From Balanoglossus misakiensis (lineage: Eukaryota; Animalia; Hemichordata): a stretch of DNA of 64,000 bases. A program made the translations under genes and the position numbers. The notes beneath the pieces were generated by a model. That model was given only the letters and a program-made list of their open reading frames with translations. It made no database searches and had not been told where the DNA came from. Each line of letters begins with the position of its first letter. The stretch's first letter is position 1. The stretch spans positions 12,466,127 to 12,530,126 of the forward strand of contig CM082585.2 of the NCBI GenBank assembly GCA_040954595.2. The letters are read 5' to 3'. Below are positions 18,932-63,047 of this stretch, piece by piece.

Positions 18932-18993
18932 TGTCTTCAAGAGTTTAGCCCATTCCATATTAAACAGCCATACACAAATTTTCAGACATGTAT
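18932..18993. repeat. 62-bp exact direct repeat, copy 1
   Basis: TGTCTTCAAGAGTTTAGCCCATTCC...TTCAGACATGTAT is identical to 19597-19658. Confidence 0.9.
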
Positions 18994-19305
18994 TCAACCA
19001 GTCTATGTCCAATATGAACTACATAAATTTCAGGAAACAACAATATGACAAAATACACATGAATTTAAAAAAAAGTCTTTAGTTGAACTAAATACCTGAC
19101 AGTAAATAATCGTTCAGAGTGCAATCATTTCCAAATACCTGAAGGTCTAACTTTAGACTGGTCTTGAAAACATGCTGAATGAAGTGTGCAGAGTTGAATG
19201 TCTTCATTCATACTTAGTATACACACCATGAGAAAATATATTGTAATCTATTTGGTAATAATATTATCTTTATGGTCAAAAACAGATTGTATGTTAAGAC
19301 TATCA

Positions 19306-21996: not shown

Positions 21997-24900
21997 ATGA
22001 GACAGGCTCACCTTTTCGTACATCTTTTCCTGATTTCTTGTGGAATTTGTGGTAAGTAGTATACTGCACGTAAATACAATCACTTTACTCTGAGTCCGAG
22101 AATGGATCTCAGCATGAACACTAAACGGTCACTTTACCTCGATGCCAAATATTCTACTGACTTTTAACATTGAGCACTGTTGAGAGAACGTAATTATAAA
22201 ACCACTAATGGTATTTATTCAGCCATTATTGACAAAAACCGTGTGGCCGAAAACATACATGTATCATTTGTGGAGCAAATTACCTTTCAAGATTGCATGT
22301 TCGTAACTCGCATCCATTGAGCCCATGGTCACATCATTAGAAATATTTTAAATGCTTGACCTCCAGTGTGTCGATTCTTAATAATCTAAAGTCATTGTAA
22401 GTAGTGGGATACAGAATAATTCATGATTATGTTACCTCAGTGAGTGTTTGTTGTACCAGGTAACTTAAAATGCACATCAATGTACATTGTATCGATGTAC
22501 GTGGTACCAGCCATTGCAAAACCATCTGAGGTACCGCCAGGCTTCATGGACAGATGGTTGAAACTAATCTGCTCTGTTGTATCCACTAACGCGTCGATTA
22601 TTGATTCAGTTGGCAGACAAGAAATTTACTTGTTCAGTTCTATGCTTGTTTGGGTGATGTTTAGATGTACAATCGCCAGGCCCGCTTTAGGTTGATTATC
22701 TTTAGGGATAAGTGTTGAGATGTTTTACCTAGATCTGTCTGGAAATCTACAAGCCAACCCCAAGAGATAACATTCCTTCATTACCACACCTTCCCAATAT
22801 ATCAAGTTGTTTAGTAAATGCAATATTGTGATATGGTCGTCACCAAAACATTGAGGTCATATCCTAGAGGTGATTGGAGTGATAAAGCAACAGGAAGTAT
22901 ATAAAAAGGATGGGTGTATTGTCCGCAACTTTGAATCAGGTTCAGTTGTTTTCATCACAGAAGTGGGCACAAGCAGATCAAATAAGCATTTAACATTCGG
23001 AATATTCATACCAAGGAAATATTAGCTACCCAAGAAATATGTTTTTGTTTCTTTAAATGAAGAGATGCAAATGTATTAAAGGAATCCATATATATGTAAG
23101 GCAGTAAACAGAAGGCCATTGTGCACTTTGAACAAGCATGAGTCATACTAATTGTCAATTGACATCAAAGATATTGTGATATGTAAAGAAAGAACCTTTC
23201 CTGACTTGTATCCTGTACTTCATTACTTGATACCTGACTTTGATTTTTAAGGTCATCAGAGGAAGTGTCAAATGTATGTCAGATCAGGTCAAGCTATGGT
23301 ACTCAGTGGTAGTGATAAAATTACTAACATTGAAAATTGTGATAAATGTTTTGTTCCTGCCCACATAGACCAGTTGTGTTTTCTTCTGGTGTGACACTGG
23401 ACATGTTTACGTTTAGCATGAGAATGGAGGAGGGTAAACCATTGATCTTTTTCACCTGGTCATTGATATGCTAATTTGTAAACATGTATTTGATAAAAGT
23501 TAGCCATAAGTGATATATTTCCTTCAATACAACATGAATTGGATAAAACTCGTAACAAACGTTGAGCTCACAGTGATTTGAATGTATTGTAAGAAATTTA
23601 GAAATGCACTGGGTTGTAAAATAATTAATTATCTGAAAAATAGTGGGTGGACGAACTAATGGAGTGGTCGAACCGAAGGATTGATTACGGTAATTAAATT
23701 GTGCATAAGTGATAAGTTATTGCACCAGATGTCATGAAACTTGATAGACGTAGTGTTCTTTATGTTATGTTCGGTGGATGGTATTACATTGTTCTACATG
23801 GTTATAACTTCAAGTGTTGGTAATCAAAGTCCTATGTACTCAGTTTGTGTTGGGAACTTTGGAATGTGGTAAAGAAACCGAATTGGACACACACAAGCAC
23901 AAAATCTCACTTTTGTCAGAATGACTTGGTTGACACAAAGACATACTTTTTGAAAGAACACACAGCAGAAGGGCAGTTAACAAATGCACTGTGGCATTGT
24001 GAGACCACTATCTTCACAATTCTTTTGTTGAATCTTTCTGTTTGCTCATGGCAAGGTTACAGGCAATACAGGTAAAGTGGGAAGGTTAAAATCTAATTTT
24101 AGCAAGTCTGTGTGGCAAGGGCATCAAAATATAAAGAGTTACGTAAGCCTCCATATAGTGCAGTTTTGTAATAAGAGTATATCATAATGATGACATGGTT
24201 ACAACACTGGTACAAAAATTCAATAATCATGAATTTACTTCTGTAGTGGCCGTATTTTCTGAAAGACACAGATTAGGTGCTTGGTTCATGAACCTCACTC
24301 AGAAGAAAAAAAGAATGGTCTCATGGGTCATAAATCAATGGGTTCAGGGTACAAAGGGTTAAGAAACAACTACAATTTTCTTAGGTTTACATTCTTTTTG
24401 AAAGTTGTTAGTTTCCGGATAAGAAACTGTTCCCCAAAGTGCATGGTTTAGATTTACCGTACTATCAAGAGGAAACATCTGCAACTAAAGAGTATGTGAT
24501 TAACACACAAGTGGCAGGAACTTAAAAAAGTCACGGAAAATCATTGTTTCCTGGAAATGGGTGTAAGCAGCAATCGTAAAAATTATCTTAGGAATATCTT
24601 CAGAATTTGCAATTTGATCTTTGACCTGCTTGAGGTCTCATCATCTGTCAGATATACAAATATTCTTATATATTGCACATATAAATAAATGTTCTCATGA
24701 CACTTTACAATTATTACCCCTGGTCACTGGTCCTACATTACTTCCACTCAGCTTCCTAGGGAGCAAACTATTGCAGCTGTAATCTGCCACATTGATAATT
24801 TTTTTCTGCCTATATCTTACAGCAGTCAAGGCTCAAAGTGATGACTCCAGTTTTATCAAAGGACCAAGGCTTATATGGATTGATAGGAACTCTTTTGGAA

Positions 24901-27900
24901 TATCATCCCGAATTGTCAACGTAGAAGGAAATGGCACAGAGCTTTGGAACAAACTGGACAAGTCCTCAATAACCATGATTTCTCAGTTACTTCATGAGCC
25001 ATCACCATCATCTAAAGTTGCCATAGATTATGACTACGATGACCACTACATTTTCTGGACGGATCCTGGTTATAAGATGGTGAAAAAGGCCATGCTTACA
25101 AGTAAAGGCAATATCACAGGTCAGTTTCATCACCTCTCTGTTGACTCAAGATTTGCACATTTTAAGGAGATGGTCTTATAGGTTGGAAAAGTGGACAGGA
25201 ATTCCTTTTTCATTATATGCGGCCTGTTTGAAATGAATGTCTGCCTGCATCTTTTGCCTGAATGTTATGCACAGAACCTTGATTCTGTTTAAAATTCTTT
25301 ATATGCAACTCTAGGTGTATTTCATGGCACATCAAACTATGTAGAAGGCATTGCTGTTGATTGGTTGAATAACAAAGTGTACTGGACTGATGCTGCCTAC
25401 AATTGGATCATGGTTTCTGACTATGACGGCACTTACTACCACTGTGTTGTTGATACTGGACTTGATAAACCAAGGGGTATTGCTGTTAATCCTCTTACAG
25501 GGTAAATGAAAAAATCTTTGTCATCCTTTCTGATTTCCGTTATAACAGTCTGCTATGTGAGTTGCCACTTTTAACACAAGGTCATTTGTTTTGTGTCAAC
25601 TGGCATGTTACAGTTTCACATTTGAATTGATGTTTGGTTTCATCATGAATGGCACCCTCTGCAGATCAATTGAGGAAATGTTGTCACACACCTAGAGACG
25701 TACCACATCAGAAGTTAAATAAAACTGCTGATCTGTCTATTGCTTCATCCATATTTTTGCAGCTATCTGTTCTGGAGTGACTGGGGTAAAGTTGCTAAAA
25801 TCGAAATGGCAACTCTGTCGGGTAAGGACCGTGTGGTACTCATTGATGAAACAACACATGGAGCAATCATCGGGTTACCTAATGGCTTGACTATCGACTA
25901 TGAGGAAAATAGGTGTGTATTGCTCTGATTTTAAGTCAATCCAGTGAAGTGAACATCTCAAAGTTGCTTATGTGGTTCTATACATATTGTTAACAAAGTT
26001 GTATGCATGTATTTTCTACTGATCCCACAAAAGACAATTATTCTCATTTTTTTCTTCCACTTTTAGTTTGTACTGGGCTGACAGCAGTAATGATAACTTG
26101 TACTCAGTGAAATTAGATGGTGTAAATGGGTCAATTCCTCACAATAGAATACGTCTGGTTGGAACAGCAGATACATTTGGTCATTTTTTTGACATTGACC
26201 TTGACAGTGTAAGTAATTTAACAACATCTTTGTAAGCTCTTCATGCTCCATATGGTATGTTGTGAAATGTTGCTACATGGATGGAAATAGTTGGGTAAAT
26301 GTATGGAGTATGGTTTCATGGTCTACTCATGATGTTCTGGCTACAATATAGTTTACAAATAGTGGAGAGTTAAATATAACATGAAATTGTTTAGGCATTC
26401 TTTGCATGTTTGATGTTAAAGAAATTAGAACAGGATAGAGTTTCTTATCCTTTTTTCTTTTTTGTGTGTGTGTGTCCTCAGAATTATTTTTTCATCTCTG
26501 ATTGGGGTAACAGTGCCATAGACATTGTTCCTCGCAATAACCTTGATCAAACAAAGTATCTACGTCCAGGTGGTATGTTTAAACCGTACGGGGTTATAAT
26601 GTATGATGAGGACCAGCAACCAAAACAGTTAAATGGTAAGTAAAAATGGATTTTCTTTCAATCTATTTGATGTTTTTTGGCCAATGAAACATAGAGAGCA
26701 TATGCCATATTCTCAATTATGCCATGAAAATACGTTCATTTTTAGTCTGTAAGTTCCCTCTCTAGAGGTCCAACCTAAACATAGAAACAATGGTTTTGGA
26801 CTGAAAGATTTTGTGATAAATTACATGTATTGGTTATGCTTTCTCCTTATCAGTGAGTTGCAAAGTAAACAATGGTGGGTGTAGTCACATGTGTCTTGGT
26901 GATCCAACTGGATACAAATGCAAGTGTTCTATTGGTTATATGCTTGCTGATGATGGCCACACCTGCAAGAATCGTAAGTTACCTTCTGTATGTTGATGTA
27001 TTTTGAATAGAAAGTTATGGTTAGCTTTATATATGAAGGATAAAATGTAAAAGATTTGTTCTGTAATATGTGACAAGTTGGATCAGTCAATAATTTTTCC
27101 TCACCCCTCTTTTGCAGAAACCTCCCATATCCCTTTGATGCAGTTATTCTTTGCCGACTCAGATGGAATCTGTGTTCTACCAGCCAATGTGGCAGATATT
27201 GCCATCAGTGACACACAACCATACAACTACAACTGCTTCCTCAATGTCAGTGTGTCAACATTTGACTATGATACATACAAGGAGAAATTGTTTTACTTTG
27301 ACAAGGTACAACAATGCATCATGAAGTTCAGCCTTGTAGACGGAGGTGCACCTGTAAAAGTCATTAAGGCTGAAAATGTCACAGGTTAGTTGATTAAATC
27401 AATATAAAGGTTGACCAAACCTGGAGCTTGCAATCCACCTGCTACAGACCAATACAAATGCAGTTAGATTTCAGTTTCTGATTTTCTTACTCTGTTTCTA
27501 GGGATTGCAGTTGATTGGGTTTCATCGAACATTTACTGGACTGATATTGGAAAACAAGAAATTGGTGTTTCCAAACTAGATGGTACCTACAAGTATATTG
27601 TGCTGCAGGAAAATGTTGACAAGCCAACAGCTATTGTGACATATCCACAGAAAGGGTAAGTTGTAAACATGAAATTGCACTACACACAGGGCCTTTTATG
27701 GAAACACTCTTTATTGAATGTCGATTTGTTTGTCTCATCCTTGATTTCTGTGTCGTTCTACTTTGTGTGTGCATAGATATACTATATGGCATCTCTGCTG
27801 GGAACTTGTAGATTATACTCATGGTGAAATCACATTTAAAGGGGTCTATTACCTTGTTAATGTTAACAATAAAATAACTTGAATTGCAGGCTTCTGTACT

Positions 27901-30900
27901 GGGCTAATAGCGGAGCAAACCCTCGCATTGAGAAAGTGGGAATGTCTGGCAGGAATCCTGAAAGTTTTGTCAGTAAAGATATTGTTGAACCAATTGCTCT
28001 CACCATTGACTTTGTCAATGAAAGGTAATAAAACTTTTTATGTCATTGGTGTTATGTATGCAAACAAAATCCATGAAATAATAGACTCTAATACTAATAT
28101 ACTTTTAGCTCCAAATGTGGTAACACAAATAACAAACATTTTTACAATACATCATACAGGCTGTATTGGGCTGATGGTGGACTAGGAACTGTGGAGTATA
28201 TATCACTGACAGGTGGAAATAGACGGCCACTTCTCAATAGTCAGACAGATCATAGTTACCGTGGAATCACAGCTTACCAGGTAATGAACCTAAACTCAAC
28301 CATACTTGTGGTTTCACTTGTGTTGATTCATTCCATTTCACGCTCAAATGTTTCTTCATTTCTCACCTTCCGTCCCCTCTTCCTCCATTCCAGGATTACT
28401 TTTATGTTTCAGAGCAGAATAATGAGTGGATTGTTATTCTAAATAAGGAGGAGAAGAAGCATACACGATCACTGAAAGTTGAGGGACTTGGTGCTATCAA
28501 GTTTTATGATAAAAGTTTGCAGCCCATGGAAGGTAATCATTTATTTATCAATTTGATGAGTAAACAGGCCTAAAGCCCAATAACACATTTTATTTTGTGC
28601 CAAAGTAAGGGCTTTTCTATCTTCAGCAAAATTCTTTGTCATTTTCTTTGTTTGTATGTACAAATGTAAAAAGATTGATTTAATATGGTTTACTTAATAG
28701 AAGTCCAATCAGGTGGAGCATGTGATATTGACAATGGTGGCTGTGAAGAGTTGTGTCTGCCAAGTCCTGATGGTCCTGACTGTTTCTGCCAAGAAGAAAA
28801 TGATGAAACTGGAAAAGTGTGCCAGCCAGGTAATAACATCCTTTATTACTGTTATATGTAACTGAACCACAAGAATTTCAGTGTTACAGTTGTACTGGAA
28901 TGTTGGCTGAAAGTGTTACCTTGCCACATCCAGTAACAAAGCTAAACATTCTTTTATTGTCGTTTTCCAAGGCCTCCACCTAAAGAAAACAATGGACCTT
29001 TGTTTCCTTGATATAACAATGAACAACTTGCATATAGGATATCATGTTGCAAAATGAAGCCTTGACAAGATTGTTGGATTGAGATATTCTTGTTGAAATC
29101 AAAATCAGAATATGAGACACTTTGCAAACATTGTAGCTAAGCAGCTATTCTTACCAGGTTTTCAAATGTTTTTCCCAACAGTATTGCGATGTCCAACCTC
29201 ATTTCTTCATGGCCATGTTACTGAGGACTGTGACAACACCTATGGCAAAACATGTGGCTTTGTTTGTGATGAAAACTTCATACCCACAACAGATGAGCTG
29301 GAGCCTTTGGAATGCCAATGGGACGGACTCTGGAACAGTAAAATCCACAAAGATAAACTTTGTGCATTAAGTAAGTGAAATAGTGTTGACAAGGAATTAT
29401 GAAATACATTTAGTTTCGCCTTTAAAAATGACACTCCCACTACATGAAATATCTTGAACTTGCTGTTTAGATTCCTATGGTCAATAGCTTTTGAATGCTG
29501 CCATAGAAACCAAGCAGATAAGAAAACCAATTGTCAGGCAACATTGCAAAGCACAGTCATTTATTGCATAAAGTAGTGTATCTTGTGTTGTTGGTTTGAG
29601 TTGAGGGTGATTCTCTCTGACCCAAGTAGCTAACATTTAATGAGAAAAAGGCTGTAGTTGACTTCTTTCAGGCTCATAGCCTGTAAATTTAGTGCATTTT
29701 CCATGACATTGTGTTTGTGATAATTTCTTTATTTGCTCTTTCTACAGATTCATCTCTTGATCACTTTATTTTGGTTGCTGATACCCATCAAATCATGCTT
29801 ATCGATGTCATCTCAGACGGGGTTTACAATTTCATTCCACTGCCAATCCAGGAAGTTGTTAATCCAGTTGCCATTGATTTTGATTTTGTGGAGGAGAAGT
29901 TGTACTGGACTGATGCCAATCAAAGGAAAATATACCGAGCTAATGTAGATGGATCTAACAAAGAAATCATTGCTGAAGATGTACAAGGTACCACAGTGTT
30001 GACCAGAGTGGCCTGTTTGTCTCGCAATTAGTTTTATTGCATTTTCTCTTTTAATGTGCAACCACTGGTAATAACATGCCAGTGTGATGGAAAATTCCCA
30101 TCGGAATTCATGACTGAAATTTCTTGTGGTCTTCATGCCATATTTTGACATTGATATTTAATTAGACACATGTTCAGTGATGTGTTTATTTTATACAGTC
30201 AGGTAATTCTTCCAATTGATTTCAGAGGTGCAGCTCTGTTTAAATTGTACTTTATCTTCATTTTTCAGTCCCAGATGGTTTAGCACTTGACTTTGTCGAC
30301 CAACGAGTCTATTGGACTGATGCTGGTAGTGAAAAACGTATTGAAAGATCATATTTGAATGGAACAGACCGTGAAGTTATCATCGGTGATCAGTTGGAAA
30401 AACCAAGGGCTATAATGATTGACGGCACAAATGAGTAAGTGAATTGCCAGACACTGAGGTGGTTCTTGTGTTATATTGTCAAGGGCCACAGGCTTGGGGA
30501 GCACCAAGGGAGAGTTAGTTGTATTCATACCAATTCATATTCCAAAGATCATAGATAAAATATATCTCATTGGCCACTTCCAATAGAAGATATTTTGTGA
30601 TCATCATATTACATAATGACAGCTCTTTTCAAGCTAATGGATGTATTTTCATGTTTTTCTTAGATACATGTATTGGACTGACTGGGACCCCAAAGGGGCA
30701 ACTATCAACCGAGCTAAACTGAATGGCACAGACAGAGAAGTTCTTGTGAATACAGGCCTCACCTGGCCAAATGGCTTAGTTATTGATTTATACAGTAAGT
30801 GTTTCCTAACAGATTGTTTTCTTGCCCTAATACACATTGCAATTTCCCTAGACTTTTACTTCATTGTCATTGTTACACAGTCAGTCTTAACCCTTTCAAG

Positions 30901-33214
30901 CCTGGCTTTCTGGGAACGTATCCGAATTTCTCCTATATATAGGATATCCGGCCAGAAAGGGTTAATCAAGAATGTGTGATGCTTAACGTAATACTCCCCA
31001 TTTTCCTCAGCATTTTCGTTTCAGTTTCATTTTTCTTTACATCAGCTTGACTTAACTAGGACCATGCATGTATTTCTGTCTCTTTCAGCCAACAAACTTT
31101 TCTGGTGTGATGCCAGCCACAATATAATAGAGTCAAGTAATCTTGATGGTAGTAATCGCAAAGTACTCATTAACCTTGGAGAATCTGCTCATCCCTTTGG
31201 TTTAACACTTGAAGGAAACAATCTATACTGGACGGATTGGGTAGAAAAGCATGTCATGACGGCAAATAAATTCACAGGAGGAAAAATCCACTCCATTGGC
31301 CAAGGTTATTTCAATAAGCCTAATGACCTCCATGTTTACAATAGAAATGGATTGATAAAAGGTACCTTACCTCCAACTTCAACAAAACAAGGTATGTAAT
31401 TCTTAATTAAACTAAAATGCATAACACCTTCATTAAAGCCTTGTTATCCCAAATCTGTCTTTGAAGATTTTAACTGCATCATGTTGCAGAAGCAATGATG
31501 TCATAGGAGGCAGATGTGCTGTGTGTTTTTAAGTGACTGTGAGACATTAACATTTGCTTGACAGCAGAAAGTATTTACATATGACCAGTAAGGGAGCAGG
31601 ATTTGTTTGCATGTACAAATTTTGGTGATCTTTGACCTGTTTTTGTAGATCTGAGTTCTGTTGTACTTGGTAATTTATTGTTTGGTCGATATGGATCAGT
31701 AAGGGGCCAGAATTTGTTTCAATATTATGAGCTAACCTTTGACCTACTTTCCCCATATCTCAGCATCTATTGAAACGTACCGCACACTTTGTTCTTGATT
31801 GATGTTGTTGATCAATAAATGTGCAGAGTTTGTCTCAAATTAATTTAGTTTACCTTTGACCTGCATCTTTCAAAAATCAGAGACAGTGTTGCTGATGGTG
31901 TACATAAACTGTACGCACTCTTCTGCCCATGGGATTATTTCATTTTTATAATCTATTGGTTCTGCTTATTATTTTAATTGCATGCTTTGTTGTCGTCAAT
32001 TAGGTCATTTTAATGTTCTGTAGCAGATTGTTTTATTAAACCCATTTGCATGCTATGTGTGACCTAACTTATTTCATTGTATTAAAAATTCAGTTCATAA
32101 TCATTTCTCATATAATAAACATAGGACCAACTACAGAGAAAGTTAAAACAAGCACAACAGATAGCTCCCTGATAACTAATCCAAGGAAAGCTCCCACAAG
32201 TTCAGATATAGGTAAGACAATAGAAAAAAGTCTTTGTAGTGGGGGGTGGGGGGTGTATCAATTGCCAGGTCAAAATCTGTCAAAAGAAAATTAACACAGA
32301 GACAGGAAATATCTTAGGCAGGATAATGTTTATACAAATGAATTAAAAACATGAATTACAACAAACTTGGCCCATAAAGTTAATCATTTTGCTGTAACAG
32401 GTAATTTTCCAAGCACATGTTAATTCTGACGCTTTCTTGCAAATGCATACCTTTCTGGGGGTTTTAGCTTAAGTTTGTTACATACCCACTGAGGGAATTG
32501 TCTATTGCTTGCTGTTTAATGTTGATATTGTACAGTTAAATATACCATGTCAAAAGATGATTGCAGTAGTTTAGTATAGTTATTCTATGTGGTGAGACAT
32601 ATTCGTCATCTTAGTTTTCTCACACATCCAGGGAAAACAACAGAATTGCCAGCATCTAGCAAACCAACGAAGGCGGCCAACAACACAGGGACACCAGGAC
32701 CACATTTTGCAAATTCACACAGCCTTGTTTTACTGCCTGTATTCATAGTTGTGGTGGTTATTGTGTGCATAGTTGTCATTCTGATAATCTATCTCAGGAA
32801 AAGGTAAGATATTTACTCTCACTTTTTATAGAGGGCATCCTTGTTGTACATGTGCCTTGATTTCGTGTTCTCTGTAATCTCCTATCCCTGGCACACTACA
32901 CATAAATTTAAGCATTTTTACATAAACGACATGGAAATTAAAATAGAATTATTTGTCTCATTTAATTTTTACTTCTCCATAGACATAAAACCCCATCCCT
33001 ACCAGCCCGCATGAAGTTTGATCGACCTGTCTACAAGAATCTAACCGAGGAAACAGACAGTGTTCTTGCTTATTATAGAGATGATGAAGCTGAGTTAGCC
33101 AACTCACAAACTGGCAGTACGCAGCAGAGTAATGGTACTGCCCCTCCACAACTAGGACAGTACTCACGGCTTCAGTTTGATAATGGCAACGAATACGTGA
33201 CATTTAGCCAGTAA
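21997..33214 (+). CDS. LDL-receptor-related type I membrane protein: signal peptide, three YWTD beta-propellers, two EGF, one Sushi/CCP, S/T-rich stalk, TM, endocytic tail
   Basis: First exon 21997-22051 ([18 protein letters not shown]). Many YWTD/FWSD/YWAD repeats. [15 protein letters not shown] and [15 protein letters not shown] exon RCPTSFLHG...CGFVCDENF...[34 protein letters not shown]. Tail [14 protein letters not shown]. Stop ends at 33214. Confidence 0.92.
30887..30965. mobile_element. Short piggyBac-like MITE (TTAA target site) in a receptor intron
   Basis: TTAA-CCCTTTC ... GAAAGGG-TTAA. Confidence 0.65.
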
Positions 33215-33235
33215 TCAAATAAAAGCCAAAAACTG

Positions 33236-33261
33236 TTCTTCGGAGTAAGAAGCTCTAAGAA
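33236..33261 (+). promoter_or_regulatory. IRE-like 3'UTR stem-loop, copy 1
   Basis: TTCTT-C-GGAGT-AAGAA-GCTCT-AAGAA, 21 nt after the stop codon. Confidence 0.7.
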
Positions 33262-33367
33262 TTCCATTGATGCTTTTTAAAGATTTCTTTGAAAGAGATC
33301 ACGATACATTACTCTGCAGTTTGGTCTCCAGCTACCAGAGTGCTTTCTGTCAAGACGATGATTTGAA

Positions 33368-33393
33368 CTCTTCGTTGCCAGAAGCTTCAAGAG
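33368..33393 (+). promoter_or_regulatory. IRE-like 3'UTR stem-loop, copy 2 (two U.U mismatches in the upper stem)
   Basis: CTCTT-C-GTTGC-CAGAA-GCTTC-AAGAG. Confidence 0.55.
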
Positions 33394-33522
33394 AGAACAA
33401 CGGCTATGTGACTGTGAATTAGTATCTGTACATAATATATGTATTATGTACAGTACCCCATCTCTTAACAACTTTTGCCAACAGAGAACTTTGAAAGTGT
33501 AACAGTTTTTGTATTTTTGAGG

Positions 33523-33549
33523 CTCTTCGAAGTTAGGGTGCTTCAAGAG
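33523..33549 (+). promoter_or_regulatory. IRE-like 3'UTR stem-loop, copy 3 (6-nt loop)
   Basis: CTCTT-C-GAAGT-TAGGGT-GCTTC-AAGAG. The lower stem extends by AGG/TCT. Confidence 0.7.
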
Positions 33550-34620
33550 TCTACTGTAAATACATGTGTACACCCCAAGAAACTACTTTTATTTTATGTC
33601 TCACAGGAGATTTAAGACAGTTTTTACAGTTACCAAGAAGAAGAATCTTGCAGGTATAAATTAATATAAAAATACTGTTTAAAAGTTTATTATTAGGACT
33701 TTGCCAGCTTCTAATGTTTTTGAGGCACTTTACCCACTCCAACATACAGACATCTAAAACAGTTTGAATTGAAGTTTGTGTCTGTATTAATACAAAACTT
33801 GGAAAGAATGTTGAAAGGTTCCTACACCAGTCACTGTAATGCAGTGAAGTTGTCGTTGCCTTCATAATATCAATATCTGTCTAAATAAAGTAAAAAGTGT
33901 AACACCTACCTTTATTTCCATGCTACCTTAGTTTTTCTTTTGTGTAAATTCAACCAAAGTTATATGTGAGAAAATTGGACCTTTTTATACCTGAAAAACT
34001 ATTTCTATAATTTCCACCAAATGTTTCTCTGTTTATTGTATTTTATTTTTTATTTTATCTACTGTCTAGCCATGTTTAAAAATAGTGTGTAGTTTTTGTT
34101 ATCCCCAACAGCTCCATTCTTTGCAGTCATTACTTAGTCACTTATTCATGTGAACACCTGGATAGTTTTTCCAGCAATGATAGAACTTGCCTTCTATTTG
34201 TTGATCTATAATATATGCAACCACCTGGATGTTTCATTTGACCAATGAATGAAAGCTAACTTGGTGATATTAAAGGATCCCATGCATAAATTAAGTCAGT
34301 TCACCTCTGCAGCCAGACTGGCCACATGTATGAACTGACGATGTCTCTGTACAATTTCAGGTTAGTTTTTCCTTGTACTTTACATGTAGCTTGAAGCTTT
34401 GTATTTTGGTGCATTTTATTGACTTATTCCAGCTCAAGTAATTGGTGTATTTTGGTGTCCAGGCGGATGAAAATATTTATATTTATTGGCATCAATGAAA
34501 AATGAGTGTGACTGATGTAGAAGCCTGATTGCAATTCTTGTCAACAAAGATTTTTTTCTCAAAATGTACAGTCACTATCAGCAGATATTTGACGAGGGGA
34601 GGCTGGTTGGCAAAAATATA

Positions 34621-34649
34621 ACCTATTCGGAGCAAGAAGCTTCAGAGGT
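34621..34649 (+). promoter_or_regulatory. IRE-like 3'UTR stem-loop, copy 4
   Basis: ACCTATT-C-GGAGC-AAGAA-GCTTC-AGAGGT. The lower stem has one bulged A. Confidence 0.65.
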
Positions 34650-35568
34650 CTATGCAATAATGTAGTACCAAATTTTGTAAGTTAAGATTTGTCAAAGTGA
34701 GGATCGTCAACATTTCACTGCTGAAGAATTTTCTTCATCAGTCAAAGGGGTGTGTTTGATGTAAACAATAAGTTAATTTAAGGTACCTTGTTGAGGTTCA
34801 TGGTCAAAGAATTTTTCATGGGAAAGATCAGTGGACAGGTCTTTCTGTGAATTTTATTCTGTGTCACCAAAATCTGTGGTACAGGAAGTATGTATTTGTT
34901 TTTGAGGCTTAAAGGGACAAAGTAAGGAAAGTTTACTTTAAAAAATGTGTAAGTGTTGCCTTGCATAACCTATGGTCATTTTCATCTGAAACGTGGGTCT
35001 ACTGTTTGAATTTTGAATGAATTACCCATGCAAACCTCGCATGCTATCTTAACTGCAATTCGAGCAGGTGCTAATTAACAAAAAGCCTGCCTAAGTGTAT
35101 GAAGAATTGTACTGGGTGATTGACTATACAATGTAGCTGCCTTTTTCTCTCTGCTTGTTATTTCTTTCCTCAACAAATTCAGTATATGAGGGATACAAAC
35201 ACACACTCTATGGGACATTGTGTGGATTATTTTAGATACAAGGTTTTTCTGTTTTGTAGGAACTTACTTGGGTTGGCTATTTAGGTTAGAAAGTATGCTT
35301 GAAGTAAATATTTGACACTTGCATTTTGCCAGTCTTGACTCCTTACTATTCTGTGTTTGGAAAAACAAAAGAATTGAAGACAATTATATTTTGTCAGTGA
35401 GGGCGTGGTGATGGTCAATTCAGGCACAGGGTCCCTGTTTCTGTAGTTTAAAGCTTATGTCTCTTAATTAGTAATATGTTTTATTAATTGTTGTGATAAA
35501 AAATGTCTTGATTGATCAAAAGTTATTTGTTGCATTATCATATTGGTCTTCAAAACCGTCATTTACAG

Positions 35569-35594
35569 CTCTTCGGAGCAAGAAGCTTCAAGAG
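35569..35594 (+). promoter_or_regulatory. IRE-like 3'UTR stem-loop, copy 5
   Basis: CTCTT-C-GGAGC-AAGAA-GCTTC-AAGAG, extendable by CAG/CTG. Confidence 0.7.
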
Positions 35595-36803
35595 ACTGGA
35601 AATGTAATCATTTTTACAAAATCAAAAGACAGTCTCTGAAAGCAATTGAATAAAATTAATATTCTCTCTTTGCCGGAGTTCCTGTGTAATTCACGTCTTA
35701 AAAATTTGTCAGTAATCAAAGTTCATGTAGTGCTCCTAGCCCAATTGCTTGGCATGTCCTGATTCTGATAAGTCAAAGAAAAAAGATTGTATTTTGCAGA
35801 AAGTTCTGCTAACTACTGATTGAAAACAATCTCTCAGATGTAGTTTGTTCCATTAATTTTTAAATTTTGGTTTGTAAAGTCCTGGAGTGTTGTCATGTTA
35901 GGTTAGGTTAGGTTATGTTGTTTATGTCATTGATCATGATGTCATGCTTGTATGCTTTGATTGAATATGGTTTACTTGTCATGTTTTGAAAGTAGTATTC
36001 AAGAGATATGTACACAAAAAAGAAAATGTTAACCAATGACAACTGTTGATTCCACTTTATAAAGGAATCATGGGCATACTGTCAATTTGTCCAAACTCAA
36101 TCCCCGTGTGGACTAAGTCCATATGCTGCTAGTGTTACCTGATTTGTGTAATGTGTCTCTGGCATCAGTATGCACAGTTCCAAACACAGGCCATCTTTGA
36201 ATATGTGCAAATGGTAAACTCATGTTCAGAAAATGTACTATATGTTCTAAGAGAACAGATTTCTCTAAAATTGGACCATGTAATCTTTGTCTCCCTCCAA
36301 AGCAATTTATTGGATACTAGTAATCTGCCCATTTTTTATACAGGTTATAGTAGGTGCAGTGTATTGAAATGAAGTCTATACAAATGTCTCCTGTCTATTT
36401 CCTAGTTCATAGGTTTTCCAGGCTATTAAGTAAAACTAACTTTTTCACCAATGAGTTTTGAATCTGTTTTGTAAACATTCATAATCGATTACATACTTTT
36501 GGCTGTTTCAACATGGCCTGTGATGTTCTGGTTCATACCAATGTCTGAGTTTCCGTTAATGTTGAGTTTATGGTCATATTTTAGTGGATTGAACTTTGTC
36601 GTCAGGTTTACAATAAAGATGAGTTTGTAGAGTCCTATCATTTATGTTTTCTGTGCTTTGTGAGAAAACTTTTCATGGTTTTCTTATTGTCTAAAGAAGT
36701 AATCAGTGGACCTGCCACAATTAGGTATTTAAATGGCATAAATTTGTGTCGTATATAGCAGTTACGTCACTCACACTGATCGCGGGATGCTCTCATCAAG
36801 AAA

Positions 36804-36841
36804 TGTGCCCCTTTAAGTGGTTTGTGCCCCTTTAAGTGGTT
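36804..36841. repeat. 19-bp tandem duplication
   Basis: TGTGCCCCTTTAAGTGGTT x2, between the convergent 3' ends of the receptor and NALF genes. Confidence 0.85.
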
Positions 36842-39800
36842 TGGGTGTAAATGAAAGACACAGGAGTCAATGTTAGTATTAAAGTCAGCCTTCCATTAGA
36901 CCACATTAATGACAAATGTTTGAATACTTCACAAGAAAACTGTACAATCACTTTATTGTACGTTATTCAAATGAATGGAGACTATCGGGTAACTAAGACT
37001 AGTAAAGGATGTTATCAGTACAGGCACACAATTTGGTAGGTAGAAATCATTGTGAAGTTTCCATTGGCAATATTGTCAAGCAAATCAATTTAACATCTCA
37101 AACTTCTTAGGAATAAATACCGGTAAATAGAAAAGAATTATAGTGAAACCTCAGCCATGTTTACTAGACTTTCTTATTTTGCTGATAAAATAATGCCATT
37201 GGGGTTTCATTCAATTCAAATATGTCACATTCAACCCGTAATGCAAATCAATGTCGTATAATCTTGCATTAAAGTATGTTATTTCTTGGACAAATTTTAC
37301 AGTGGTTGTTTTACATATGTGTATAACATTAAAGAACAAAGATCACTATAAATAATTTGTAAGTTATCAAAACTTGGTTAAATTAAGGGATCTTCACCAA
37401 GTCTGGCAAAATGTTAAAAGTACACGATACAATTTCCTAATTTCTAAAGCAATTCTGAAAATGGAAAGTGTTCTAAGTCACAAGCACCTTTCAACACATT
37501 TTACCAGAAACTTTTTCTCACCCCCTTTATATGTGACACACAATGCAGTATTTCTGAAATCAAAATTCTGTTTTATTTTTTTCAGTTTGGAAAAAAACAT
37601 GGCTGCAATTACAGACAGAACAATAAAACACTTTCTATGAATGCTTCAGAATTTTTCCCTGAATGAGCCAGTACTTAAAACTTTATCACTACATCTGTTT
37701 CTCAGTATGATAGCCACTTAAGCCCAAGCACCTGGCTTGATACTGTCACTTTTAATTACATATTAATTAAAATTAATTTTGAGTAAAAATTATACATTCT
37801 CCCATACATGCAAAAATCCCTAAATTAACTACATCACCAGCCTTATTGATTAAAAATTACTTTGTAAAATACACTTGACTTTCTTACTCCAATGGCTACG
37901 AAGCTGGCCATGAGTGAAAATGTAGTAAACTAGAGGTAGGGTTTATAAGGTGTCATGAAGGGTGGGCAGTTGGATGGGAATGGTACTGAACCACAGACAG
38001 GAGAGGAAACCCTCCGTGTGCAGTCTATGACTGAATGGGAAGATGGATGGGAGGTGAAAGGTGGAAAGCAGAGGTGGGTATAGATTATGGTGAAAGGTAC
38101 AAATTTGTCCAGCAGTGTTTTTTATTTTTTGCTCGGGTGGAAAACTCGCTGAACTACAGCAAATGGTAGGCACCAGTAGGGCTATAGCCACTGGAGATGT
38201 TTGGTAGAGGTTTTTGTCAATGCTGTTGTTGTTTTTTAAGGGTCTTCATAAAGACAGAGTTTGTTCAGGCAGGTTTCACTGCTGTAACATAATTGCCCCT
38301 GTCCCAACATTAGAGTCTTATACATGGTCTTGGATAGAAATGGATTAACTGAGCTGCCACCTGTATCAAGAAACACTGCAAGACTGATTTGGCAATTGTA
38401 TTGAACCTGGTGATTGGAGTCTGTGTGCAATGTCAGTTAGGATTGAACATTGGTAACTACATGTCAAAGGATGGGTTTAAGTGAAAAGCTAAATCTGTAG
38501 TGGAAAGGTGCTATTAGAGAAGAAAGAAAGAGGCCACAAAATCTACAATGAATATTCACAAAATGATTGAAGGAAGAAAATACATTTCAGTATTGCAGTC
38601 ATTCTTTAGACATCAAAACATGAGCAATTCATCTGACTTCAATGAACTTCCTGTGATTGTCAACTGTGCCCGAAAGAGGGCGATCTACACACAAATACTT
38701 GCACTTGCTGAGAACAAACGTGAAGTTGTCTATGAATAAACACTAATGCCACAGCTCATTATACAATCTATTTTTTAAAGTCACAGATATGGGAGTGAAA
38801 TTACATGTTCCTTAAAATCAAAAGTACATTATCATCTCTTGAGTATTTATAAGTAACAGTAGTAGCACTATGGACAAACCGATTCAAATATTAGGGGTGT
38901 ATTACATTAAATGGGATCACACTAGTTCAATAGAGGGATAGTTAAGTTAATCATTTGATTGATTTGTTGGTTGGTTGATTGATCGATCGATCGATCATTT
39001 GATTGGAGGAGGGATGCATTCCAATGGAGGAATATAATAAATATTGTGGCAAAGTCAACTGGGTTTTTACTGTACATGCAGAAAAGTACCTTATTTCAGC
39101 TGCAGTGTCACATGATCTAACATAAGGAATATGGTTTTCCACCTCAGTTGGGTAATGAACCAAAAACATGCTTTGAAAGCAAAGGTCAAAGTAACTGGAA
39201 ATATAAGCAATACTATATGTATATATATCACCCAAAAGCATACAATGCGACTTTCTTTACACTCCCATGTCACATGATTGCCAAGTTCAATGCCACCAAT
39301 TGTTGTACTTAAACTGAAAGCTAATTTGGAAAATGTTTGGTTTTGAGAGAGAAAGAAATGCCGGAATGAAATTCGGTGACACCAATGTTTCCATTATTTT
39401 GTAATACTGAAACTATCACATGATTAACAGACCAAACCAAATTATGTCATAGACTATTTGCAGCACTCTTGTCAGGATGGTTTTGATTGGTCAGTTCCTC
39501 CCACATCTGTTGTAATTGTTTCAAAATGATAATCCACTAATCACTCCAGTTCATTAGAGTGAGTTTGTAGTGGCCATTACTTTGACATCAGATCATTAAA
39601 CCTGACCCTTTATCACCCAATCATTACATTTTCTCTGAGACATGGTGACAGCAAATTCCATCAAACTTTTTTGTAACGTATCTTGATGAGATATGACTTC
39701 TTTCAAAGACATTTGCATAAAACAAGATCTATGAAAATGAAAGCATGTTTGCCATTTTAGGAATGTGCAGTTACAAATCAAACCAACAGCACATTTAATC

Positions 39801-44000: not shown

Positions 44001-45362
44001 CCTACTTCAGCCAATCTGATGACACAAGTCATACCTTAATACAATTAATGTTATGTATTAATTGTGACTGTTTGTATTATTTTTAGTATATGTTCTTAAT
44101 ACCTATTTGTTATCATTAAATGAAAAGTGCTAATTAAAACTGATATAAGTAAGACAGGGTGACAATGTTGTCCTCTAGATTGGGAGTGCAGAAGAAAAAT
44201 AATGAAGTATATAAAATTCATCAGTCCACGCTGCAACCAGCGGATATTCTATGCGTAGCTGGTTTAGCTGTTCATGTGAGAGGCCTACAAAAGGGGTGTT
44301 TCTAAATGCGTTGTAAGTGCGTCGCCGTTCAAACATTATCAGTGTAGATCTCCGTCATTGGCATACATCGAACGTTACTTTAGCTTCGTCTTTACACGTC
44401 GAAAATCGGGCCTGAGGGAGTGATGGGGCATAAATTACTAACATATTATTTTTCATTTGCTAAAAATTGCAGGACTCTATCTGATAAAAGTAAGCCTACA
44501 AAAAGGCTACGAAAATGAAAGATAATGCTTGCACGCAAAAGTATTTCACATTGAACGTTGGAGCCGGGGCCGGCTGAATATATATTGCATATGATGCGGA
44601 GAACGAACAGCGTAAAGCCGCCCTGTATATATCCAGCTTGCTCGCTTGCTCAATTATCAAATGTCTGGGAGTTATTCACTCAAATGGCCTACAACAAAAG
44701 ATGCTTTTCAAACGGAATGTGCTACCAGTACAAAACAAGAGGCACTGCTTAGAAACTGCTACAAAGGTGCTCAATAGATAGGGAGGGTAAGCGATTTCAT
44801 TGCAAGTAACAGTGTCGGAGTTTCTACTTACCAGACAATCCTGGCATCCGAAAATGTCAGAAAATCCATGGCCGCAGTCATAGCGACCAAGTATATCTTT
44901 GAAATCCTGGTACATTATTTTTACTGAGGTGTCGTTAGCTATTATATCGTGAAGACAGGTTCTACACTCCTCGGGTTTTGACAAAGAGAGGCAGTTTTCA
45001 CTAGAATCAGAAAATAAATTTGAAAAGGGAATGGAGGTACAAAATGGTAACCCAATGTCGTGTTGTTGCGTTCTACAACCAGCTGTATAGTTGGTACACA
45101 ATTCGTCTACAAATTCACCCGTCAAATGAAAACACTGTTCTCCTTTTCCTAAGCTATTATTACAAGATGATGTGACAAAATATTCACGTATTGGCGAGCA
45201 ACTGGAACTAGTTCGCCAGGCGAAGACGTTTCCCAAATCCTGGTTACTCAGAAGGATGGTGAAAAATAACAAGGATGCAAGACTGAGTCGCCATCTTTGT
45301 AAAAGCTCCTGATAAGGCCTTTCAGCGACGACAGCACCCCCATTGTAACACCCAAATGACAT
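41080..45362 (-). CDS. FAM155: NALCN channel auxiliary factor (NALF/FAM155 family), 3 exons
   Basis: Exons 45362-44832, 41664-41505 and 41336-41080 splice in frame. Diagnostic QRWRLSLASLLFFTILLS. Cys-rich domain ILGRYDCGHGFS...CQDCL-KAYREWIC...PCLNTCGKVTARCPYLLP...GLPTFVC. Hydrophobic C-terminus LLALLCILFWTVLYSLTTGYT*. Confidence 0.93.
42617..42672. repeat. Degenerate (ACTGT)n microsatellite
   Basis: TACTGTAATGTACTGTACTGTATTGTACTGT... in NALF intron 1. Confidence 0.7.
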
Positions 45363-47606
45363 ATTTCAACAACAGGGAATCGGTCTTCTGCGTTCCTCAT
45401 GAAAGATGCTTAAACCCAACGGGCGATCGACAGGAAAACCGACGATCAGTTCCTTGTATTCCGTCAGCACGCACTTCTATTCCTTACTCGGCGTTTCCCC
45501 GCAAACGTTGAAATCCATCAATGGTTGTGCAAAAACGCAAGATCCTTCAAATAAATACGTTCCCAGTATTTCCCGAAGCTGTTCCGTGTTAAATTAACAT
45601 CTTTGAGGCGGTGACAAATGCCGATTTTCGTTTGCAGAGATACAGAGACTGCTAGGCGATGTGAACTCCATTTTATTCCTATACCGTCGCCGCCATCTTG
45701 ACCACTTCCGAATTCACTCACTCTCAACGCGCATGCCCGTATTAATTAGGTTAATTAGTTAAATAACTGAGTCCGTTATCACGTGTAATTTCAGCACAGT
45801 TTTAAATTTACACGGACAACATGTTTTCGTATTAAACCGAAAGGCTTAAGGGTCGGTGGTTCAAATTCTATGTCCGCCTTTAGTTTTTTTATTTTCGTTT
45901 ATTATCATTATTATTATTTTTCATCTGGGGCGCCCTTTCGGGGCTTATGCCTAATTTAGTTATCAATTTCTCTGCCGTACCACCTGTATCACCCACGTAG
46001 ATAGAACTCTACCATAACACAAAAAAGTATAATATTGACATGATACCTCAATAGCTCACATTATTTCGTACTTGCCGGCCATTATCACTGACGTCATTGA
46101 AAGTCACAAAAGGCTTTCGTTCATTCAATCAATCACGAATACAACTATATTTAATATATATATATATTAAATATATATTAAATATGACCTTGAATTCTTA
46201 TGATTTTTGTGTTGTGTTGTGTTGCCGAATTTTTGGTTAGTCCTTTATTAATAGGTCGCTCCGTGATCTTGCCATCGCTTTACCACTTTAAAAAGCACTA
46301 TTTAAACATTCAGTCTCAAGTCTTCCCTTCACAATATCAATAATGACGCTACTCGTTAATAGAGTTTCATCGAGCCAATTTGTCGCAATTCACGTAAAAT
46401 TAACTTTCATTTTTACGCAAAAACATTCTTTGTAAAAAAAATAACCTGTTTTAACTGTAATATTGTATATGAATACCGTAATGTATTGGATAACCGCCAC
46501 TATCGTATCAAAAGTTTGGGCAGAGCCAGCGAGAGGGTGTACACCCGCATAATTTTAGACTTTGAGTGCGTTCTGATGCAGATGACGTTGAAAATTTTGG
46601 AAGGGTCCTTCTAAAGGAAAGTTTTAAACTAAAGCCCATTTTGTTTCCCCCTCCCCGTTCGCAAACTTCAGTATGATTCCATTGGGATTCTACAAACGGA
46701 AAACCAACAAACGCATGTACAGAGAGCTGTCAGATAAATGAGTCACGTGGTACCTAAAACGACTTGAGTGACCGATAGAAAAACTGACACAGAATAAATT
46801 CACCAACGTAAAAGTAATTCATCGACAAAATGTTGAAGACCCATCTCTGCTGTTGCGTAATCACGGATACTCCGACGCGACGCGGCGTCGACAGCAATTT
46901 CTTGATACCGCCCTCTACGACGAAAGCTGTATTTACTCGAGGTTTCGTTTTACGCATCTATCGTGATTACGGGATTTAGAATAGGATACATCATGTTTTC
47001 TCAGCACTGGGATGACTATGAACAGAAGTACTTGAATAATTTAAATCAATTCACTTGACAAATCATGGTATTAAGGTTCCACCTCTAGTGGGTATATAGG
47101 CAGCTAGTTCATAAAAGTTGAGCACATTTCGATGTTTTGTATGGTTCACATCGAAGACAGTTAAAGTAGTTGGTAGTTGGAATAGATGGAGACAGAGAGG
47201 CTACATACAATTCAAAACAATTTATTTCATTCAACAAACTGCAAAAAAAGAAGAAACACATCTAGTCTAGGTCAAGTCTCTCAATAAATGAATAAAGAAC
47301 AACATGCCAAGTTTTTCTATTACTACTATAATGCTGGAGGTAGCTAACATATTGTAACAAATTTGAACAAAATGGGTTCAGACATGGTAGAACATGGATC
47401 CAAGACACACAGACAAGTCTGGATGAGCCACGTCCAATACATGTACATCTTCGTATAAAGTAAGTCTTTGTAGGAGCCGTGTATTTCTGGCATCCATGGT
47501 AGTAAAGGTTAGAATTTCAAATCTGCATTTATAACAATACAATTCCTCTACAATCTATAAAGACACACTGCCAGTAATTCCTCAGTCGACTTTACACTGT
47601 TTGGGT

Positions 47607-50600
47607 TCAACGACAGAACCACAATCTTAGTGAATTGTCTCTTGTTATTTGATTTGATGTTACGATGTCATCATCACTGTCACTATCTGATGCCATAGGA
47701 ACTGGAAATTTCCTTTCTCCTGATGCAGTGGCCATGATAGGAAGGGACGGATGTAGACTGTTGAAAGTAAAACAATACAAAGTTGATGAAAAAGTAACTA
47801 GCCAACTAAGATGAACAATAAAAGTAAGTCATATGCATGTTGTTTTATGAAGGCAAATAATGAACAGACTGTTCAGTCATGATTTGCAGTGTCAGGTCTC
47901 TTTCCAAGATCTAATTGGCGCCCTCTAGGGCTCCAATGAATTTTTATGTCACCCTGCCAAACAGAGAAAGAGAATTTTGTCAACAGTGAACTGTGCTAAG
48001 TGAGGCCTTACCTGAGACCATTCACAGCATCATTATGTGCAGCATATGTCATTAACGGCAGAAGTGTTGGTGTACCATCGCTGCTTCCAATAACAGCTGC
48101 AGTGGTGTCCCATACTGTTACCACACTATCCTGATTTCCAGATGCTATGTACTTCCCAGTACTATGTTGGCCAAACATTCAAAGAATGAATTTTAAAAAT
48201 TGACAATTAAAAACAGCCCAAAAAATGAGAAACATGGGTACATAATTGTGGAGTTATGTAGATAATCTCTCTCAATATACAATACACTAGATTAAAAAAA
48301 CAGAATCATGTACATGACCACAGTACATCCCACCAGCCATTTTTGGTATGTGTTCGGTCTGTCATGAAATTGCTGAATTCAGTTTTGTATAGAATATGTA
48401 ATCTAATTTATCCCAGTAATGACTTCAATCTTTCCATTGAGTTTAGATGAATAGCTTACCTATCGATATCAAAGTATACTCTTTGATTTGAAGTTGCACC
48501 TCGTACCATTCTGTACAAAATACCACTTGGGTTTCGGATGTCCCAACATAAAATTTCTGAATCCTAAAAAAGATATCAAACATTTTACTGTACATGTTGG
48601 TGCTCTCTGACCATAATATTGATGATACTCTCATCTTAAGCTCACAAATGTTAGAGTCAGCGATCACAATCACTTGTGCAGGCTAAAGATCATGATATTG
48701 CCCCCACTGTCAACTACATCACACACAGTCAACAAAAAGGGTTAAACTTGGGTACGATTTAAACACTGAATGGCAGGTTTGAATCAAACATTCATCGATA
48801 GCAATACTTTCAGATAGCAAACCCTTTTTGGTCAAGCAGACTGGGGGCTGATTAGCCTGATACACAAAAAATGTAAGGATATGAGGGGGATGTTTCTCCT
48901 TTAGAGTTATACAGTGACATGAATCCCAGAATGGATTTGACTTACCTTTCTACCGCCAGAATACAGCAGATTTCCATCTGGAGAAAACTTCAAGTGAGTC
49001 AAACCACCTTGATGTCCACCCAGTAGAAATTCAAGTTTGCCTTTAGATTCACTGTAAATCCCAACTAAATTAAAGGAAAGGTCTGTGTGAATCACCAAGA
49101 GAGGTGCCTCACCACAAGACTTAGAGTGATGCCCACACATAGTCGTGTAAATTGGATGAGATTAAATCTGTATCTGAGTTTTTGCTATAATGTGTATGGA
49201 AGTAAACAGTCAGCAACGATTGAGCCAAGTTTATATCGATTGATTTATTAATGTTAGAAATAAACCAAGCAGTATACTAACTTGCATAAAAAATAAACAC
49301 TAATAATAAGTCAAATAGACATGTCAACACTTTTCATTGTTAGTCAGCTGTTTCACCAAGACATGTTTCGTATCATTAAGTGTCAACATGAGGCAAACAT
49401 TGATGGCGCCCTCTGGAGAGACAAACATGAATCTTGTTCAGTGCATCAACAGTCAACATTTGAGAGATTGGAACAAAGATTCTAGCCTACAACATCTCAC
49501 CCAATTTGCAGTAAGAGCCAGCTGCATACAGCTTCAATTGCTGTGGATTCATTGCAATGCATGAGATTATGCCAGCTTGTCCCTTCTTCTTGGCTGAAAG
49601 ATTTGATTCAACAATACGAAAGTGACAATGTCATATTACACTTTCCAACTATCAGCAAAAATTCAAATTTCTTTGTGTGCTACAACAATTTGATCAGTAA
49701 ATCCTGAAACATAGACAGGCAAACATGCAGACAGGAAGGTAAACATCCACAAGATTACAAAAAAACAGTTGACAAGTATAATATTATTCTTACCATGTGT
49801 CAGTCTTTCTTCACAATCTCTGCCAGGTCTATCTGTATAAAACACCCTTATCTTTTTATTAAAACCACAGTAGAGTTTCTTACCATCCATGCTAAATGCC
49901 ACAGACAATGGTGACACCATCTCATCCTATAAAAAGTAACATTTTATTCAGAGTGTGACCTCATTTCTGATACCAACCAAAATGATTTTATGTATTTATA
50001 GAATTGATATACACAGAGAATAGACTCCGAAATCCTAGTATTAATGTAGAATACAAAGGTATGGGTGGTTGGCTGCTTTGTTGGATTGATGGATAAAACC
50101 ACCAAACAAATGTACTAAACATTTACCAAATGATCAAATGCTCGATATGTACATCTCAGCTGTCCAGTGAATGCATCCCACATCTGTATAGGGTGATCAC
50201 GAGAACTGCTTACAAAGCTGGAAGATGAAGGTGATGTCACATACGTTTGTCACTGCAGATATCAAAGATGTTTCAAAGTACCACTCTGCAATTATTTTTT
50301 TTTTAAATCAAGTTTTCCACCTACATTATTGTGATCTGTAACTTGGTAGAAAATGAGACCAAGAGAAGACTGTTGTGACAAGAATTCAAGACATATTTGA
50401 AATTTACCAGCATGTACTTGGTTCTGTTGACTTCATTGGTGGATACCATGCATAGTCATAAACCAGTTCTCCAACCGCAACACTAAAAACGTCATCCATT
50501 TCTGCTAGGTCTGAGTACTGACCATGATAGATTTCATTTGGCAGATTAAACACTCTCAGTTTGTCATCATCACTGTTAGTTAGAATACAGGTGCCATCGG

Positions 50601-52676: not shown

Positions 52677-52764
52677 TAGCTCTGCGTACAGGTCTGTGTG
52701 TTCCCGGCGTTACACGGTGGAGGCCGTGTAACGCCGGGAACACACAGACCTGTACGCAGGGCTA
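52677..52764. mobile_element. 88-bp palindromic MITE with 9-bp target-site duplication
   Basis: 41-bp arms (52677-52717 and 52724-52764, 1 mismatch) around a 6-bp spacer. TSD GCAAAACTT at 52668-52676 and 52765-52773. Confidence 0.9.
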
Positions 52765-62920: not shown

Positions 62921-63047
62921 GTAGGTTTTGATTGTAGACTAGACCAGCCTTATAGCAACTTAGTCCATCTCTCTGTCACATGGAAACCTAGTCACATTTC
63001 TGTAAGAATTTAGAATAATTTCCAGTTAATACTCATCACATCAGTGA

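Follow-up and report, generated by a model that had tools for sequence, protein, structure and literature searches.

An array of five bulged-C hairpins behind the stop codon in an LDLR-superfamily receptor gene of an acorn worm

Few multi-copy structured switches are known in the 3'UTRs of nutrient-uptake mRNAs, and the chief example is that of the transferrin receptor gene, TFRC. Dispersed hairpins with a shared tip are also found in the 3'UTR of MAT2A, where they are read by METTL16 and tie the mRNA level to a metabolite. In vertebrate TFRC, five IREs (A-E) are recognized by IRP1/ACO1 and IRP2/IREB2, and IRP bound to these 3'UTR hairpins shields the mRNA in a graded manner from Roquin-dependent decay (PMC8058555, PMC4931119). 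Here, we describe five hairpins with IRE-like geometry that lie behind an orphan receptor gene of the hemichordate Balanoglossus misakiensis. They were examined in a stretch of 64,000 nucleotides (assembly GCA_040954595.2, contig CM082585.2, positions 12,466,127 to 12,530,126 of the forward strand), which is called the window below and to which all coordinates refer.

The five copies begin at positions 33236, 33368, 33523, 34623 and 35569, all on the + strand and all 3' of the stop codon TAA (33212-33214) of the receptor gene. They are confined to 33236-35594, or approximately 2.4 kb, and none occurs in the remaining 61.6 kb of the window. When both strands of the window are searched with the pattern TTCGNNGYNAGRN{1,2}GCTYY, five matches are obtained, each of them an array copy, and 100 of 100 dinucleotide shuffles of the window yield none, a comparison that is post hoc because the pattern was drawn from the copies themselves. 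By construction, a covariance model made from the five copies gives each of them a high score (43-50 bits); its best match elsewhere in the window has 11.7 bits. A test that presupposes no motif finds four similar 26-mers as a family within 33215-35670; no family has more than three members in any of 20 shuffles or in any of 26 fixed tiles of the window, and two of these tiles cut through the hairpin array.

All five copies carry an unpaired C with an AG 7-8 nt 3' of it, and the GCT that opens the 3' arm is another invariant part. The flanks are unrelated, and the likeness among copies ends at the stem edges. A preliminary description of this DNA, made from its letters, had reported five dispersed sense-strand copies after the stop codon, unrelated flanks, the invariant C and AG, and a motif noticed nowhere else in the window, and each of these observations holds. 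Its coordinates were right for four starts; copy 4 had been placed at 34621, and its register begins at 34623. The proposed stem consensus also requires correction at copy 4, whose lower stem (CTATT/AGAGG) departs from it with one A.A and two U.G appositions. The multi-copy hairpin element behind this hemichordate-type receptor gene is real and apparently undescribed. The literature searched, outside of which most subscription papers lie, contains no description of the element, of the receptor or of a propeller-transferrin complex, and nothing on an IRE with ferritin in Saccoglossus or on IRE pentaloop deletion with IRP1.

Predicted folding varies considerably among the copies. The third hairpin (h3, 33523-33549) has a bulged C at 33528, a perfect upper stem and a 6-nt loop, UAGGGU; with a folding energy of -15.9 kcal/mol (z -3.4) and a pair probability of at least 0.90 in seven of seven sequence contexts, it is the only copy that folds in every one. 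The fifth (h5, 35569-35594), which has a bulged C at 35574, perfect stems and the loop AAGAA, folds at -15.3 kcal/mol (z -3.3) and has a probability of at least 0.88 in five of the seven contexts and of 0.15 or less in two. In the first (h1, 33236-33261), a 5-bp lower stem, a bulged C at 33241 and a 5-bp upper stem support the same loop, AAGAA. Alone, h1 folds at -8.8 kcal/mol (z -1.9). Its pair probability is 0.97-0.98 in local contexts and 0.07 or lower once pairs may span at least 100 nt, and it forms in five of the seven contexts. Competing folds are predicted for both h1 and h5. The fourth copy (h4, 34623-34648) again has the loop AAGAA on a perfect upper stem, with its C (34628) in an internal loop and its lower stem broken or shifted, the extended stem starting at 34617; predicted probabilities are 0.78-0.99 for the upper stem and 0.05-0.28 for the lower (z -1.7). 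The second (h2, 33368-33393) is degenerate, with its C at 33373, two U.U mismatches in the upper stem and the loop CAGAA, and is predicted not to fold (z 0.16; pair probability of 0.33 or less in all seven contexts). Of the five, h1, h3 and h5 are predicted to fold with a clean single C bulge.

If the copies are aligned to the bulged-C fold, pairing is seen in 47 of 50 stem cells, a number reached in only 10 of 500 shuffles; the exceptions are two U.U cells in h2 and one A.A cell in h4. Seven cells are G.U and none is A.C, which points to an RNA signature of the sense strand, and the + strand folds more stably than its complement in four of five copies. The earlier statement that variation preserves pairing holds, but the covariation is weak and not significant. 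A two-sided change relative to the commonest pair type is present at only one pair (reached by 101 of 500 shuffles), and 63 of 500 shuffles match the covariation score. This weakness, together with the partial breakage of copies 2 and 4, might be expected if the hairpins were neutral relics without function, left by the local copying of a short palindromic repeat or of the decayed end of a mobile element. We consider such an origin improbable, because five copies on one strand within 2.4 kb are accompanied by none in the rest of the window, mismatches are of the G.U-tolerant kind on the sense strand only, and a similarity that stops at the hairpin edges is unlike that of a duplicated segment or transposon. 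The preliminary description had named a common, strand-indifferent genomic repeat as a reading that would refute it; within the 64 kb, matches lie only in the array and only on the + strand, and dispersed copies may exist elsewhere in the genome.

An alternative fold was also considered for the first copy. The stretch 33488-33511 (+ strand) is a weakly predicted long-range partner of the 5' half of h1, and their duplex reaches -18.3 kcal/mol, with 5 of 300 shuffles as good. A fold that has this long-range pairing and lacks h1 and h2 is favored by about 6-7 kcal/mol over one that contains both hairpins. The whole segment 33220-33515 has a z of -3.67, or -1.9 without the palindrome described below. 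A designed conformational switch between this stretch and h1 was dropped because the pairing was notable in one of nine partner tests.

Selection might instead act on a linear site, such as a microRNA target or a site for a single-strand protein, with the hairpin merely gating access to it. Such a site would most probably be located in the 3' arm (GCUUCAAGAG), which is the better kept of the two arms, or in the AGAA loop; h2 retains the 3' arm where its 5' arm no longer pairs, and AGAA and UAGGGU resemble Tra2 and hnRNP A1 sites. However, all five copies also keep the unpaired C and the 5' arm, at fixed spacing, and isolated 3' arms are not found elsewhere on the + strand of the region, where the four matches all lie inside hairpins. 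A linear site is therefore judged quite improbable.

The gene that precedes the array was modeled with 21 exons (21997-33214, + strand) that encode 1188 amino acids in one open frame, all introns being GT-AG. Its product is predicted to be a type I protein comprising, in order, a signal peptide, YWTD propeller 1, an EGF domain, propeller 2, a second EGF domain, a Sushi domain, propeller 3, a Ser/Thr stalk, a transmembrane helix and a tail of about 80 amino acids. Pfam searches with single exons returned PF00058 (LDL-receptor class B) and PF00084 (Sushi), and a protein search with exon 27120-27383 found no match. There are no LDL-A repeats in the gene model, nor is PF00057 in the Pfam list of the Ptychodera flava cluster (orthologue P0092), so any cargo would bind the propellers. 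The name LDLR-family receptor given previously can be kept for the LDLR superfamily, whose YWTD propeller-EGF modules, single transmembrane helix and tyrosine-based sorting tail are all present, and has to be withdrawn for the core family (LDLR, VLDLR, LRP1/2/8), whose LDL-A (complement-type) ligand-binding repeats are absent.

Among 336 gathered proteins, the closest relative is P. flava XP_070538616 (P0198), which is 67.6% identical over 1194 columns, and the remaining family members are at most 41% identical. A quick tree of 35 rows pairs these two proteins with a support of 100, and the receptor groups there with what appears to be an expanded enteropneust family (P. flava, Glandiceps and Saccoglossus paralogues and some unnamed rows), apart from LRP4 and LRP5/6, a placement that by itself points to an enteropneust hemichordate as the likely source of the gene. 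An Atlas cluster of look-alikes contains 81 proteins, with molluscs commonest among the six of known phylum; as a lead, the receptor family may be wider than the enteropneusts. Propeller 1 is the part of the ectodomain best kept relative to the orthologue (80%). In the P. flava isoforms (P0198, P0092 and P0199), the stretch matching stalk exon 32125-32211 is absent from isoform X2, and isoform X3 stops before the transmembrane helix, a predicted soluble form without the last exon and its 3'UTR.

The last coding exon (32983-33214, + strand) encodes the cytoplasmic tail. This tail is identical to that of P0198 at 68 of 75 residues (91%) and ends at the same final residue, which fixes the position of the stop codon. 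Within the tail are FDRPVY, a variant of the LDLR-type motif FDNPVY, and three YxxPhi motifs (YKNL, YSRL and YVTF), and the best non-orthologous tail match (P0083) bears FDNPVY. Motifs of the FDxPVY and YxxPhi types are endocytic signals when present in tails, and the receptor is predicted to be endocytic.

We infer from the sequence that the hairpins are part of the mature mRNA, within its 3'UTR. A candidate poly(A) signal, AATAAA, lies at 35649-35654 on the + strand, 55 nt after h5, and would define a 3'UTR of about 2.45-2.46 kb that holds all five copies. Another AATAAA (33218-33223, + strand) follows the stop codon at a distance of only 3 bases and precedes every hairpin, and its use would produce an mRNA without the element. 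There is also an AATAAA at 33884, after h3, and an ATTAAA at 34269. Choice among poly(A) sites before h1, after h3 or after h5 could yield mRNAs with zero, three or five copies.

Two further features of this region are a perfect 12-bp palindromic hairpin at 33426-33453 (+ strand), which is possibly part of the element, and a pair of motifs of the Pumilio type. The first of the pair (33427-33434, + strand) is inside the palindrome, 33 bases after h2, and the second (33555-33562, + strand) is 5 nt after h3. These two in 2.46 kb of UTR, against 11 per window strand (0.17 per kb), were noticed post hoc. Perfect palindromes with arms of at least 12 bases occur at four distinct places in the window (33426-33453, 46146-46175, 52706-52735 and 58335-58363).

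Other genes and repeats in the window can be summarized briefly. Directly upstream of the endocytic receptor gene are two tandem genes for LAMP-like (lysosomal membrane) proteins, at 8747-13371 and about 17170-18356, both on the + strand, with Pfam Lamp2-like luminal matches below cut-off. The protein of the first gene has two luminal domains and GYQSV at the end of its tail, and that of the second has a tail ending in AYSSI. Pfam also identified a WD40 protein (3449-5618, + strand), a MYEOV2-like protein (7891-8151, - strand), a second WD40 protein (48907-49161, - strand), an O-methyltransferase (54589-56165, + strand) and a C2/RasGAP protein (59871-63013, + strand), and none of these Pfam-identified neighbors is an obvious iron gene. 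An open frame of 229 codons (44676-45365, - strand) has no Pfam match. A perfect 19-base tandem duplication is present at 36804-36841, and a near-identical stretch of about 60 bases was seen by eye to be duplicated at approximately 18932-18995 and 19598-19660.

Searches were extended beyond the window as well. With the tail exon, 260 pattern matches were found in metagenome contigs and no locus was confirmed. The hairpin motif matched 11 metagenome contigs once each, and 10 of the 11 matches fall within open frames of 264-805 codons; none is accompanied by a second copy above 10.3 bits or by a match to the receptor. Being single, mostly in long open frames and with no receptor nearby, these matches are read as chance. 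Viral contigs contained no match to the hairpin motif.

Despite their IRE geometry, the five hairpins are not members of the IRE family by the family's own criteria. Five features are set out in PMC8466369, and two of them are present here. The bulged C8 is a C in all five copies (in an internal loop in h4 and unstable in h2), and the five-base-pair upper helix is found in four, h2 being the exception. The remaining three fail. No copy has the C14-G18 cross-loop pair, these positions being A.A in h1, h4 and h5, C.A in h2 and U.G in h3. The A15-G16-U17 triplet retains A15-G16 in all five copies and U17 in none (AGA four times and AGG once), and the N19 U/C bulge with its six-base loop is seen only in h3, the other four loops having five bases. 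No copy matches any of the 19 C8 loop patterns of SIREs 3.0, as given in Table 2 of PMC12230718 and applied in our own re-implementation with four G8/U8 motifs left out. The Rfam IRE models gave no match at E of 10 or less in 33000-37500 and none at gathering score in the window. Three unrelated weak Rfam matches in 33000-37500 (E 1.6-9.2) do not fall on the hairpins, and no Rfam family of any kind reached its gathering score across the window. As for location, the copies are in an animal gene, on the sense strand and after the stop codon, in what is presumed to be a UTR. The proposal that they are IREs read by a standard IRP is not supported, given the three failed features and the lack of any SIREs motif or Rfam IRE. 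The caution that came with it was well placed: the loops are non-canonical, four of them of 5 nt, and a binder other than IRP is the more likely case. Any link of the array to iron would be one of geometry only.

The hairpins might still be divergent IREs, read by a lineage IRP1 or IRP2 with relaxed or shifted loop specificity whose binding at low iron would stabilize the mRNA of a receptor for an iron carrier of the transferrin or ferritin type. C8 and A15-G16 represent three of the four base-specific IRP contacts, their spacing is kept in five of five copies, and the 5-bp upper stem is perfect in four. On the IRP side, A15, G16 and U17 are contacted by residues S371, K379 and R269 (PMC8466369). 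If the missing N19 is ignored, the four 5-nt loops are one substitution away from SELEX motif 11 or 2, but deletion of N19 lowers IRP affinity by 100-1000-fold and destroys regulation, according to PMC8466369. The h3 loop is one substitution from SELEX motifs 8 and 10, and a loop with U14-G18, the arrangement found in h3, binds IRP in vitro, yet U14-G18 in human FTL does not regulate in vivo (PMC8466369). Precedents for departure from the canonical form are the A14 of the functional Pfn2 IRE (PMC12230718) and the G8 IREs used in some invertebrate lineages (PMC8466369), the latter indicating that IRP specificity can drift, and five copies in the 3'UTR of an endocytic receptor parallel TFRC. However, C14-G18 and U17 are missing throughout and neither SIREs nor Rfam recognizes the copies. 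Moreover, SIREs-detectable IREs are reported for most non-insect invertebrate ferritins (PMC8395497), so the usual IRP would be expected to prefer the usual loops. Divergent IREs are regarded as unlikely, though less so than neutral relics or a linear site.

A bolder joint claim is that acorn worms have a transferrin-receptor equivalent derived from an LDLR-superfamily propeller protein, controlled by iron through the five hairpins and an IRP with a rewired loop code. The loops would then be true AGA triloops with no C14-G18 pair, and the protein would be the iron-uptake receptor that has been missing in invertebrates, its traffic and its regulation both having converged with those of TFRC. 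We find this combination decidedly doubtful. If the cargo is iron, the manner in which invertebrates without TfR take up protein-bound iron would become directly testable.

The explanation that we prefer, and to which we would give an even chance, is that the hairpins make up a docking element, present in several copies and not described before, at which a non-canonical RNA-binding protein sets the level of the receptor mRNA, as in the TFRC array. An element bound by some RNA-binding protein, which the preliminary description had allowed for, is the simplest reading of repeated bulged-C hairpins with IRE spacing. One such protein, probably not a standard IRP, would dock at all five hairpins of the presumed 3'UTR; like IRP, it would touch each of them at two points, the AG at the apex and the bulged C, and its occupancy would set the stability or translation of the mRNA. 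Several copies would permit a graded response, as in TFRC, and binding would depend on how well the cell is supplied with the receptor's cargo. Speculatively, decay could be promoted by the two Pumilio-type motifs near h2 and h3, as a counterpart of the TFRC instability hairpins.

Several observations argue for this docking element. Unpaired determinants at a fixed distance, in several copies with unrelated flanks and on one strand, are most simply accounted for by a protein that reads two points, and an IRE shape without the loop letters that IRP requires suggests docking by an RNA-binding protein that is either altered or of another kind. Three of five copies keep AAGAA even though it breaks three IRE rules, which suggests a reader with another specificity; the SIREs-type IREs reported to be kept by most non-insect invertebrate ferritins (PMC8395497) make this retention an argument against a standard IRP. 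Recurrence far beyond chance and restricted to the array within 64 kb, the G.U-only wobble and greater + strand stability, the orthologue-confirmed stop codon, the AATAAA after h5 and the conserved tail with its sorting motifs all favor docking as well. The case is weakened by the covariation result, the unfolded h2, the competitors of h1 and h5 and the post hoc nature of the Pumilio-type motifs. An element without the pseudo-triloop, in which three of the four bases contacted by IRP are retained at their usual spacing, would indicate a new RNA-binding regulator or an IRP of altered specificity. The array would also offer a handle on an orphan receptor family, since a signal that alters hairpin binding would be a candidate for the receptor's cargo.

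Each of the known systems resembles this locus in some respects and differs in others. LDLR-superfamily members (LRP4, LRP5/6, megalin, and LDLR and VLDLR for the tail) share the YWTD propeller-EGF modules, the FDxPVY-type tail and a Ser/Thr stalk, one exon of which is alternatively used in P. flava. The receptor differs from them in that LDL-A repeats are absent, a Sushi domain precedes propeller 3 and the N of the tail motif is replaced by R. The MAT2A array has a different loop, whereas the hairpins have bulged-C geometry and the window contains no Rfam match at gathering score. Closer in local form are the non-canonical IRE of the Pfn2 3'UTR (SIREs motif 19, loop AAGUUN), which has C8 in common with the array and A14 in common with its AAGAA loops, and the SELEX motifs, which share C8 and include AGAA at 15-18 in motif 11 and a UAGG-type loop in motif 10; however, Pfn2 and SELEX motifs 8, 10 and 11 have six-base loops, mostly with a 14-18 pair, and none equals the array loops (PMC12230718). 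The comparison with TFRC (PMC8058555, PMC4931119) is the most extensive. The TFRC loops are CAGUGN, whereas those of the array lack C14-G18 and U17 and, in four copies, N19; in addition, the array is spread over 2.4 kb and follows a gene for a type I YWTD-propeller protein unrelated to TfR. In both systems, an endocytic receptor, predicted as such in the acorn worm, has five hairpins behind its stop codon, with a bulged C, an upper stem of 5 bp, A at position 15 and G at position 16.
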